NCBI RefSeq assembly: GCF_036321535.1
Contig: NC_087436.1
Span: forward strand, 6,696,001 to 6,760,000
Direction: 5' to 3'
Length of the DNA: 64,000 bases
DNA from: Camelus dromedarius
Lineage: Eukaryota
Part shown: piece by piece, positions 7,381 to 40,440 of the stretch
Layout: the number at the start of each line of letters is the position of its first letter
Numbering within the stretch: position 1 is the stretch's first letter
Notes under the pieces: generated by a model
Told to the model about the DNA's origin: nothing
Databases searched by the model: none
The model's input: the letters and a program-made list of their open reading frames with translations, nothing else
Position numbers and translations under genes: made by a program

Positions 7381-7491
7381 TTTTTGTTTTGAGGGTGGTA
7401 ATTAGATTTATTTGTTTATTTTTAGGGAGGCGCTGGGGATTGAACCCAGGACCTTGTGCATGCTAAGCACATGCTCTACCACTGAGCTCTC
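7381..7491 (-). mobile_element. Vic-1-like SINE
   Basis: ctggggattgaacccaggaccttgtgcatgctaagcacatgctctaccactgagct. Confidence 0.85.
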
Positions 7492-14550: not shown

Positions 14551-14650
14551 CTCTTTTTCTTTCTTTCTTTTTAAAATGGGTGTGCTGGGGGTTGAACCCA
14601 GGACCTCGTGCATGCCGAGCACGTGCTCTACCCCTGAGCTGCACCTGTCC
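14551..14650 (-). mobile_element. Vic-1-like SINE
   Basis: ctgggggttgaacccaggacctcgtgcatgccgagcacgtgctctacccctgagct with a T-rich tail to the left. Confidence 0.85.
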
Positions 14651-17640: not shown

Positions 17641-17845
17641 GCTGGTGGTGGAGCTGGTGGAGGTGGTGGTGGTGGTGTTGGAGGTGGTGGTGGACGTGGT
17701 GGTGATGATGGTGGAGGGGATGGTGGTGGTGGAGGTGGTGGTGATGGTGGTGGAGGGGATGGTGGTGGAGGTGGAGGTGGTGGAGGTGATGATGATGACG
17801 GTGGAGGTGGTTGTGGTGTGATGGTGGTGGAGGTGGTGGTGAGCG
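17641..17845 (+). repeat. Imperfect (TGG/GGA/TGA)n trinucleotide tract
   Basis: gtggtggaggtggtggtggtg... over about 200 bp. Confidence 0.95.
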
Positions 17846-23784: not shown

Positions 23785-23885
23785 CTTGCAAGACAGCTTT
23801 GAATACATCAACCAAGATCCCAACTTGGGGAAACTGAACACAAATCAGAACAATCTGGGTCCCTGTCGTCCCGGAAGCAACCTAG
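23785..23885 (+). CDS. FNIP2: FNIP2 coding exon 6 (101 nt)
   Basis: ggatttag|C TTG CAA...CTA G|gtaaaa; [33 protein letters not shown]. Confidence 0.93.
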
Positions 23886-24066
23886 GTAAAATCCGCCGTG
23901 TGGCTGGGCTCTTTCTTTCTGGGAACCACTCTCGTGGGTGTGCATTCGCTTTCTGTGAGTCTGTGGTGGTGTTGTTCTCTGTGTATTTATTTTGCCCCAT
24001 CTTTAATCCGTGTTTCTCTGTGTGTGTGTGTGCTGTGTCCGCCCTCCCGTGTGTCTCCACCTCCAG

Positions 24067-24156
24067 GGCCACTGCAGTCCTGGGGCAGCAGACAGCTGCA
24101 GGGGGGCGCTGAAGGAGGACCTCTCCGGCTCACCCGCAGCGCCTCTTTCTTTGCAG
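24067..24156 (+). CDS. FNIP2: FNIP2 alternative cassette exon (90 nt, phase 1-1)
   Basis: ctccacctccag|GG CCA...TTT GCA G|gtttgt; in frame between exons 6 and 7; [30 protein letters not shown] resembles FNIP1 GPLRLIRSASFFA. Confidence 0.8.
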
Positions 24157-25522
24157 GTTTGTGTGGAATGCTGAGCCCAGGGGGACCCCCCCACCCCCAC
24201 CGCACAGCAATACATCCTGGGCAGGTTCTTAGAAAACAAAATCCTATTTGGTGCCTCTCGAGAAACCCAAGGGGCTCTTGAGATGTCCGTTCCAAACGTT
24301 GCCAAGTTCCTGGTGTTTTGAAAATTCCACCAGTGAACCTCTCTCACCCACGGCTCTGCTAACAGCCCAGCGTGAGCTAATTGTGATCTAAAACGAGCCC
24401 TTCGTGTTTCTAAGAGGACAACATTCTGTGATTTTCCTCCACCTCTTCTGCTGCTGTGAACCGTTTCTCTTGGCCGTGGTGTCTCTGGTCCATTTCTTTA
24501 CCCGCACCCTTTCCTGCACAGAATGTCTTCAAAATCACTCTAATAAGAGCATGGACGACCCCCCCCACTCCCTCATCTCTCTCTCACCCGCTAGCATTTA
24601 AGTAGTTGAAATGTACTTTCCAGCTTCTTGACAGATGTAATCACCTCGAGGTGTCTCTGGGCTGCGTCTGTTCTGAGATGGCCCAGCCTCCCAGCTAAAG
24701 CTGTCGCGCGTCTGCCGCACTCTGGCGAGCTTAACACGTGTGGGAACCTTCGTTACTGACACTCAAAGTGGTTGGTGGCAAGTGGCGTTCTACGCTGTTT
24801 GCCTCGGTAACCTGAAAACCTGCGTGGCTAACGGGCACCCTCCCACCTACTTCAGCACGAGGATGGCATGTGTGCATGCTCTCCTGCAAACTGGGAAAAT
24901 AAACGTGCTTCACAAAGTAGCCGCGGGTGCCACAGGCAGGCAGCGGGTGGGTTCCTCGGGCGCGGAAGCCTCCCCGTAGCAACACATCACCCCCCTGGAG
25001 TCTACTTCAAAGTGAGTGGAAGTCTTTTCTGTCTGCCAAGACAGTGGGTTAGAAACAGAGGAGCCCCTTTTATGTTAATGAGATGGTTTCCAAGCCCGTC
25101 TCCTCTCCAGGTTGTCCCCAGCCACTGCTAAGACCAGCTCCAAAGCAGTTTGGGAATGCAGCGCTATTTAAATACTAATAACGAGGAAGACGGCTGGAAC
25201 AACCTGCCTGAGCACGCTTGTCCGTGGCACCCACTGCACGCGCAGTTTACTGTTCCGTTTCTCCGAGAGACAAGTGTCCCTCAGAGAGGCTTCTCTGCTG
25301 CAGTGGGGCAGGGACAGGCCGGTGGGGACTTGATTCTGTTTCCCGCCTCCTCTCACCAAAGTCCGTAATGGCCTGAACTTTGCTCTCTGGCGCATCTCTC
25401 TGTAAACCCGAGCCAGTCATTGCGGGCTGTCGCCTGCCCTGAGACGCAAACGTCACAGCAGATTTTAGACGGCTGGCTCTTCGGAGAGCCCAGTAACGTA
25501 GCTTCCTTTGCCTTTTCCTCAG

Positions 25523-25594
25523 CACACAGCACTCCTGTGGACATGCCGAGCAGAGGACAGAATGAGGACAGGGACAGCGGCATTGCCCGATCAG
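25523..25594 (+). CDS. FNIP2: FNIP2 coding exon 7 (72 nt)
   Basis: ccttttcctcag|CA CAC...TCA G|gtacgc; [24 protein letters not shown], containing a DSGxxxS beta-TrCP-type degron motif. Confidence 0.95.
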
Positions 25595-29099: not shown

Positions 29100-29206
29100 A
29101 CCACCACCTCCTCTACCTCCACCTCCACCACCACCACCACCATCACTACCACCGTGACGGGTCACCACCACCACCGTCACCATCACCACCACCACCACCA
29201 CTACCA
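29100..29206 (+). repeat. Imperfect (CCA)n trinucleotide tract
   Basis: ccaccacctcctctacctccacctccaccaccaccacc... Confidence 0.92.
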
Positions 29207-35002: not shown

Positions 35003-35230
35003 CCTGCAGCTGCCAGAAGGCACCCCTGGCCCCGCGTCATCATGACAGCTTCTGGGATTGGAGGACACAGGTGGTCTTATCCACTGGTTTCACCGTGGTT
35101 CAGGCCCTTTTTGCTTTCTTTCCATTTTGTATTTTTACTTTTTATGATAATTGGTATCCATGATAAGAAATTTATTTTTTCTTTTTTACTCTTTTAACTC
35201 TTTTTTTAGATTTTTAAATTTTTAACTTTT

Positions 35231-35319
35231 ATTATTTTTTTTTAATGGAGGCACTGGGGATTGAACCTAGGACCTGTACATGCAAAGTACATGCTCCACC
35301 ACTGAGCTGTACCCTCCCT
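35231..35319 (-). mobile_element. Vic-1-like SINE
   Basis: taatggaggcactggggattgaacctaggacc...ctccaccactgagctgtaccctcccc. Confidence 0.85.
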
Positions 35320-35504: not shown

Positions 35505-36600
35505 CTTACACCTAAAATAAGTAGCTTGGGCTCAAAAATGAAAATGTGGGGCCCCTTGTTCAAAAAGCAGGAAAAAGTGCTATTAAAGGTAAACAGTGTA
35601 AGGCTTTTCCATTAAAAATAGTTTACTTATAAAATGTAAGAGGAATAGCAGTGATACATGACTAACATAAACTTGTAAATTGAAAAAAAATGTTTTGGTG
35701 TAATAGTTTTATATAGTGTAATCAATAATAATACCTAGCGTGATGTTTTGATTCATTGTAAGTTTTCTGGCTCATTCTTCTGCAAAGTCAGTTGTATGAG
35801 TCATCAAAATTTATACATCAGTCAGTGGGGACGGTATAGCTCAGTGGTGGAGTGCATGCTTAGCATGCACAAGGTCCTGGGTTCAATCCCCAGTACCTCC
35901 ATTAAAAAAAAATACATAAATAAAAACCTAATTATCCCCCAAAAAGAAAACCAAAAAAAAATTTATACCTCAATTGATAAAATTAAAAGCAGCGTTAGTC
36001 GCTGCTGGCAAACGCAAGATGGCAAATAACTTTTGATAATTCTTTTATTTTGAGAAAGCTGTTTCTGCTCACTGTGACTGTTACTGGAGACTTAAAGGTT
36101 GTGACAGCACTGACATAAATTTGTGATAAACTTGAAAAATATAAATTTCAGTATGTCTAGATCAGATGTTCTTATGGAACCGTTTTGCCAAAGATTCTGT
36201 TCTTCACACACATCCATTTTGTGTAAGTTTGAACTTAATTTTAAATGTAAATTTGTACAAGGTTATGTTAGTGTGCCCTCTGACAGTTCCTGAATGGTGT
36301 GGAGGTCTCACAAGAAACTGGAAGTGTCTTCGTGGGTTGCATATAATGCAGAATGCCTATTTATGCATTCTGTCACGGCATCTTCAACTACATGGAAAAA
36401 TTAATTTTAAAATGGGCTTCCTGGTTAATGATTTCTTCGCCTGATGCTTCATATGAAAGTAACAGGTACTTTCTATGCAGTGCAACAATATTTGCATTTA
36501 ATTTCTGTATCTGTGCCTGTGGATATTTGCATTGCAGTGTTGCCACATTTTTCAAAAGCAGAGATTACAAAGTCTTGGAAGGATTCGGGTGACTCCCTGA
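35505..36600 (-). mobile_element. Fossil hAT (Tip100 group, Zaphod/MER45-like) DNA transposon with a transposase C-terminal remnant
   Basis: aaaatgaaaatgtggggccccttgttcaaaaag is MER45-like; minus strand 35968-36090 translates, with frameshifts, PVTV..AETAFSK*K..IIKSYLPSCVCQQRLTLLLILSIE, the hAT dimerisation motif. Confidence 0.75.
35827..35960 (+). mobile_element. Vic-1-like SINE inserted into a hAT fossil
   Basis: GGTATAGCTCAGTGGTGGAGTGCATGCTTAGCATGCACAAGGTCCTGGGTTCAATCCCCAG; near-TSD aaaatttatacatcagt / aaaatttatacctcaat. Confidence 0.9.
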
Positions 36601-40300: not shown

Positions 40301-40440
40301 GGGGGAGGGTGTAGCTCAGTGGTAGAGCACGTGTTTAGCATGCACAAGGTCCTGGGTTCAATTCCCAGCACCTCCATTAAAATAAGTAGACCTAATTCCG
40401 CCCCCACCCCCACCCCAAAAGCAAAACCAAACAAAAAATA
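40301..40440 (+). mobile_element. Vic-1-like SINE
   Basis: GGGGGAGGGTGTAGCTCAGTGGTAGAG...GGTCCTGGGTTCAATTCCCAG followed by an A-rich tail. Confidence 0.88.

Follow-up and report, generated by a model that had tools for sequence, protein, structure and literature searches.

An optional 30-residue exon of camel FNIP2 carries counterparts of two FNIP1 AMPK sites and may tune energy-stress input

AMPK phosphorylates FNIP1 at S220, S230, S232, S261 and S593, and a 2023 commentary (Freemantle and Hardie; PMC10445941) raised the question of whether FNIP2 could take the place of FNIP1 when AMPK controls TFEB. The FNIP2 locus of the dromedary (Camelus dromedarius) contains a 90-nt segment that bears on this question; it was analysed here with regard to whether it is a real exon, whether it encodes FNIP1-type sites and what its inclusion would change. 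The window was the whole 64,000-nt stretch analysed (assembly GCF_036321535.1, contig NC_087436.1, positions 6,696,001 to 6,760,000, forward strand), and coordinates refer to it. A first-pass annotation had described the segment as an in-frame cassette exon by which splicing toggles an AMPK-type input to FNIP2. The features were:

23785..23885, + strand: upstream constitutive exon 6, 101 nt, holding the residues that match human T214/S216
23886..24066, + strand: upstream intron, 181 nt, UG-rich in the window sequence
24067..24156, + strand: cassette exon 7, 90 nt, phase 1-1, adding 30 residues, paralogous to FNIP1 exon 7
24108..24110, + strand: Ala codon at the FNIP1 S220 position, site not retained
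24123..24155, + strand: 11-residue motif, with Ser 24138-40 as FNIP1 S230 counterpart and Ser 24144-46 as S232 counterpart
24157..24176, + strand: splice donor with roughly the first 20 nt of the intron that follows, conserved from shark to mammals, candidate splicing regulatory element
25523..25594, + strand: downstream constitutive exon, 72 nt, encoding the N-terminal part of a constitutive S261/S244-type motif

The cassette is bordered in the window sequence by AG at 24065-66 and GT at 24157-58 and has no stop in the required frame. When the joined sequences were translated, the junction from the exon at 23785-23885 to 25523 was in frame both with and without it, so that in camel the splice borders and the reading frame suit either form. 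Length, phase and frame had been given identically in the first-pass annotation, and the human junction without the exon that it gave (GSNL-AHST) was found at residues 218/219 of PDB 6ULG. All 14 junctions of the dromedary protein FNIP2 X1 (XP_064343028.1, a record common to the Bactrian camel) mapped to GT-AG sites in the window, with full identity over residues 58-1047, cassette included; this annotated inclusion isoform has the very same exon, with identical boundaries and translation. The open frame alone is no evidence for an exon, since of 298 AG..GT pairs in the region whose spacing keeps the frame, 76 were also stop-free. The case lies instead in conservation, with a 30-residue insert at this exact point in FNIP2 matches. 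The donor had been called weak, which is plausible but only partly borne out: among the 14 FNIP2 donors it is the sole one with T at +3, but by simple match it agrees with the 9-nt U1 donor consensus at 7/9 positions, equal to the gene's best donors. The camel protein contains Pfam FNIP_N (69-184), FNIP_M (345-578) and FNIP_C and clusters with FNIP2, which places it in the FNIP1/2 family; the cassette sits in the linker between FNIP_N and FNIP_M, and a Pfam scan of the protein gave no family matching the cassette exon itself. In an AlphaFold2 model built on a 20-sequence alignment the cassette was without secondary structure, at a mean pLDDT of 40.7 that makes the model too poor to inform.

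The exon itself is not new: RefSeq already models camel FNIP2 both with and without it, and a human counterpart is annotated in a partial inclusion record (KAI2536415.1); neither this record nor XP_064343028.1 gives the inclusion isoform a function. Among the 14 camelid FNIP2 records listed, nine include and five skip the cassette (15 of 17 cluster members were listed, one being the query). Across 120 FNIP2 matches the 30-residue insert was present at exactly this point in 51 and skipped in 66, and three were without anchors. Inclusion and skipped forms both have annotated records in mammals, frogs, sharks, teleosts (Garra) and hagfish; for FNIP1 the same holds in gar and turtles. The 30-residue insert recurs from sharks to mammals, in line with the frame conservation that the first-pass annotation had set as a check. 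Proteins called on short assembled contigs (P0466, P0510) also show the spliced inclusion form. The insert was absent from 9/9 amphioxus records, the one lamprey record available is of the skipped form, and among 149 distant representatives the motif occurred in six, every one a vertebrate. From the two forms in sharks, frogs, Garra and hagfish, together with FNIP1 of gar and turtles, the exon appears to have been present and optional before the FNIP1/FNIP2 split; in a quick tree of 20 proteins FNIP1, FNIP2 and the cyclostome sequences formed three clades in unresolved order.

Within the insert, SASFF was retained in 43 of 44 FNIP2 species (one hand-picked inclusion record each, from the fetched records), in hagfish and in 3/3 FNIP1s. 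Brachyhypopomus FNIP2 (P0313-P0321) keeps an alternative 30-residue segment at the same place and has lost SASFF, and cyprinid versions of the cassette are shortened to 21 residues with the motif retained. In camelids seven of the first 13 cassette residues (24067-24105) depart from those usual in mammals, with no change in the motif half, and a Cys kept in FNIP1 and in nearly all other vertebrates checked is Trp in the camel and alpaca cassettes. Three bird FNIP2 models (P0460, P0468, P0469) are five residues shorter at the border of exon 6 and cassette, either through another splice site or as a modelling effect; at the position equivalent to S220 they carry Ser.

Usage of the exon was seen in mouse lung. 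A skipped-exon event of Fnip2 in a supplement of PMC13289353 has the lengths 101|90|72, as in camel, and was equated with the camel cassette by these lengths and not by sequence. In control lung its PSI was 0.82, 0.73 and 0.83, and in silicosis the mean was 0.59 early and 0.58 late, on a PSI normalisation that is not fully clear from the table. The first-pass annotation had proposed an alternative exon, to be abandoned if no tissue gave inclusion reads; in the mouse orthologue inclusion prevails in control lung (0.73-0.83) and the ratio of the two RNA forms varies, and for camel both forms are RefSeq models. The 84-nt exon of Fnip1 went from 0.64 to 0.39 in the same lung data, and the two exons co-varied (Spearman rho 0.80 with 18 samples and 0.71 when the 15 silica samples are taken alone), which in bulk lung may reflect only changing cell composition. 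Fnip2 expression rose about twofold in silicotic lung while cassette inclusion dropped, and an alternative first exon of Fnip2 went from a PSI of about 0.03 to about 0.2-0.3. Taken with its conservation, the cassette is almost certainly a real regulated exon.

The last 16 cassette residues aligned with FNIP1 220-235 (PDB 8JE2) at 12/16 identical positions; the E-value was weak, the query being very short. The paralogy to FNIP1 serines claimed in the first-pass annotation thus held, in that the two cassette serines are the counterparts of S230 and S232 at a homologous position. A counterpart of S220 in basic context is missing: this position is Ala in camel and in 27/43 FNIP2 species, and the Ser or Thr found in 10/43 is without FNIP1's RR. 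The AMPK consensus has a hydrophobic residue at -5, a basic residue at -4 or -3 and a hydrophobic residue at +4. The first serine (24138-40, S230 type) has L-5, R-4 and F+4 and fits it fully in camel and in 34/43 species, with His scored as basic; pig, most sharks, cyprinids and hagfish no longer have the basic residue. The second serine (24144-46, S232 type) has L-5 and R-3, with Ala at +4. It was for this serine that LxRxxS had been said to fit the consensus, which is correct for -5 and -3 (42/43 species, zebra shark being without R-3) but not for +4, where Ala stands in 42/43 and a hydrophobic residue in 1/43; by motif, the first serine is the better fit. L257 and F264 were invariant across the 20 aligned proteins. 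A possible LIR motif was rejected because FFAV, the FNIP1 sequence, is replaced by FFAA in FNIP2 and by FFSG in FNIP1 of fish.

The published mapping of these sites is affected. PMC10445941 gives T214 and S216 as the conserved FNIP2 equivalents of S230 and S232 and places them outside conventional motifs, as poor AMPK sites. In the human 1114-residue FNIP2 chain T214 and S216 fall within CRTGSNL, as its T and its S, just before the insertion point, and camel FNIP2 has Pro at the position of T214. The reference human FNIP2 protein is without the cassette, and the full-length PDB chains (6ULG, 6NZD, 8DHB) skip it in 3/3 cases. The published mapping therefore appears to stem from the skipped isoform; judged by alignment, the true FNIP2 counterparts of S230 and S232 are in the cassette, in almost identical context. 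The statement in PMC10849678 that S220 is not conserved in FNIP2 holds for the camel sequence, with its Ala.

The first-pass annotation had splicing toggle the energy-stress input, and this was overstated. An S261-type site, IARSASLSSL (human S244), fits the full motif and is encoded in constitutive exons, with its serine in camel at the start of the exon that follows 25523-25594 (33586 onward). Skipping therefore drops two sites and leaves one, and the cassette makes a change of dose and not an on/off switch. The cassette RSASFF (24123-24155) resembles the constitutive IARSASL about 30 residues downstream; neither arginine motif is present in amphioxus, so both may be vertebrate additions. 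Phosphorylation of the FNIP2 cassette was not reported in print in the full texts and two supplements searched, all weak tests: the cassette phosphopeptide gave 0 full-text matches and was absent from the 11 kb of text accessible in the supplements of PMC9421328, and the accessible table of PMC6328551 had only other FNIP1/FNIP2 sites, FNIP1 S230/S232 being absent too.

FNIP1 exon 7 (84 nt, with residue 235 as its last and S220/S230/S232 within it) is the closest known system. It equals the FNIP2 cassette in position, in the 3' end of the encoded segment and in the RSASFFA motif, it is likewise alternative from fish to mammals, and the two co-vary in the lung data (PMC13289353). The FNIP2 cassette differs in its 90 nt, in having neither S220 nor the RR before that position and in Ala instead of Val at +4 of the second serine. 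The reference FNIP1 includes its exon, whereas the reference FNIP2 protein omits the cassette. The cryo-EM chains of FLCN-FNIP2 belong to the same family and complex but, being of the skipped form, are silent on the cassette segment. The splice-switch concept is already published for FNIP1: PMC11462206 (2024) placed S220/S230/S232 in exon 7, proposed a splice-controlled AMPK-TFEB link and found exon 7 skipping with poorer TFEB nuclear entry after knockdown of SETD3 or hnRNPK. These knockdowns alter many exons, so the result is not exon-specific evidence. FNIP2 is not mentioned in the text of that paper. In the hits listed by the literature search, drawn from openly accessible papers (hence without Malik 2023), no account of the function of the FNIP2 cassette was found.

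The flanking introns hold candidate splicing signals. The last 150 nt of the upstream intron contain 12 TGTG, against 0-3 in the other 13 FNIP2 introns, and only 7 of 792 intron windows reached 12, one of them overlapping this site. Between 24007 and 24058 there is no A, which puts the branch point presumably at least 60 nt upstream (candidate 24003-24007), and the UG runs would lie between it and the AG. Downstream, translation of the intron's first 20 nt gives GLCGMLS in three sources, namely camel, a whale-shark read-through model and a primate-like contig, a match with a chance of about 5e-8 for six codons; sharing by three lineages, seen through translations and not through DNA alignment, suggests a conserved splicing element at 24157-24176. 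The DNA pattern of this candidate had 0 matches in metagenome contigs, which is uninformative for vertebrate genomes. FNIP1 exon 7 is reported to depend on TDP-43 (PMC4605304) and on ESRP2, MBNL and RBFOX (PMC6788855); the searched parts of both papers do not list the FNIP2 cassette. The mentions of FNIP2 splicing in PMC6736558 were set aside, as they concern an alternative promoter.

These observations are consistent with a regulated cassette as old as vertebrates that was inherited by both FNIP1 and FNIP2. The UG-rich runs upstream and the conserved element downstream would recruit to it the regulators of FNIP1 exon 7 (ESRP, TDP-43, MBNL, RBFOX, hnRNPK), and these would set inclusion by cell type. 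Under energy stress AMPK would phosphorylate the included serines, raising the good sites of FNIP2 from one (S244 type) to three; with more sites the RagC/D GAP FLCN-FNIP2 would be more readily inactivated and TFEB/TFE3 more readily released, so that splicing would tune the AMPK input on FNIP2 instead of toggling it. That AMPK phosphorylates the cassette serines is somewhat more likely than not. That this phosphorylation changes TFEB output is a serious possibility which we stop short of calling probable, and the idea that a splice-set dose of AMPK-type sites tunes FLCN-FNIP2 output, which is the leading explanation, is held to about the same tentative degree.

It is extremely unlikely that the exon is neutral, rarely used or an annotation artefact, a view already refuted for mouse by majority inclusion in control lung (PMC13289353). 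Its absence from the reference human protein and from all three full-length PDB chains would fit such a view, as would the frequency of chance stop-free pseudo-exons noted above, but the same 30-residue insert recurs from sharks to mammals, contig-derived proteins contain it in spliced form and the flanking intron is conserved. The segment could also serve mainly for docking, as a short motif, or as the target of another basophilic kinase (MARK/SIK, CHK, CaMKII, PKD), perhaps creating a binding site that depends on phosphorylation, with the AMPK fit incidental. SASFF and two upstream Leu positions are more invariant (43/44) than the basic residue of the first serine (34/43), the invariance of L257 and F264 points the same way, the second serine is without its +4 hydrophobic residue, and many CAMK-group kinases share the motif (PMC12814917). 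The identical FNIP1 context has nevertheless been mapped as AMPK-phosphorylated (PMC10445941) and the second serine keeps R-3 and L-5 in 42/43 species, and this explanation is rated as rather unlikely.

If the serines are AMPK targets, their output may still be other than Rag GAP and TFEB, with the exon tuning mitochondrial association, stability or partner binding. Whether phosphorylation at such sites lowers RagC/D GAP output and releases TFEB is disputed even for FNIP1: in a 2026 preprint the five-site mutants left FLCN GAP activity unchanged, and S220 acts on mitochondria with TFEB unaffected (PMC10849678). A five-site mutant of FNIP1 does block AMPK-driven TFEB entry (PMC10445941, commenting on Malik 2023), although by the same account the individual sites were never dissected, and reduced TFEB entry accompanied exon 7 skipping (PMC11462206). 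An output away from TFEB is rated as rather unlikely.

In its widest form, tuning by splice-set dose would extend to a single splicing programme, predating the FNIP1/FNIP2 duplication, that sets both exons and with them the share of the FLCN-FNIP GAP pool that AMPK can shut off. The inclusion form would be the main FNIP2 in some tissues and a true AMPK effector, its role having gone unnoticed owing to the skipped form in reference clones, structures and alignments. Since FNIP2 is itself a TFEB/TFE3 target according to the 2026 preprint, FNIP2 made anew in the skipped form would end the response as a brake resistant to AMPK, and the rise of Fnip2 with falling inclusion in silicotic lung would fit this. 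This extension is quite unlikely.

With the cassette FNIP2 regains two FNIP1-type energy-stress sites missing from its standard reference sequence, and the judgement of FNIP2 as insensitive to them may therefore be wrong. The PDB chains are of the skipped form, yet mouse lung mostly includes the exon (PMC13289353), and the FNIP2 rescue experiment raised in PMC10445941 could differ by the isoform used. The cassette corrects where the FNIP1 sites had been mapped in FNIP2 and indicates the isoform with which that rescue has to be done.

Elsewhere in the window six Rfam tRNA matches (1065-1136, 7433-7488, 14577-14645, 35246-35316, 35830-35901 and 40305-40376) are probably the heads of tRNA-derived SINEs; a T-rich run at 35171-35245 adjoins the match at 35246-35316. 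FNIP2 introns also contain (TGG)n and (ACC)n triplet arrays, both degenerate, at 17643-17841 and 29100-29206.
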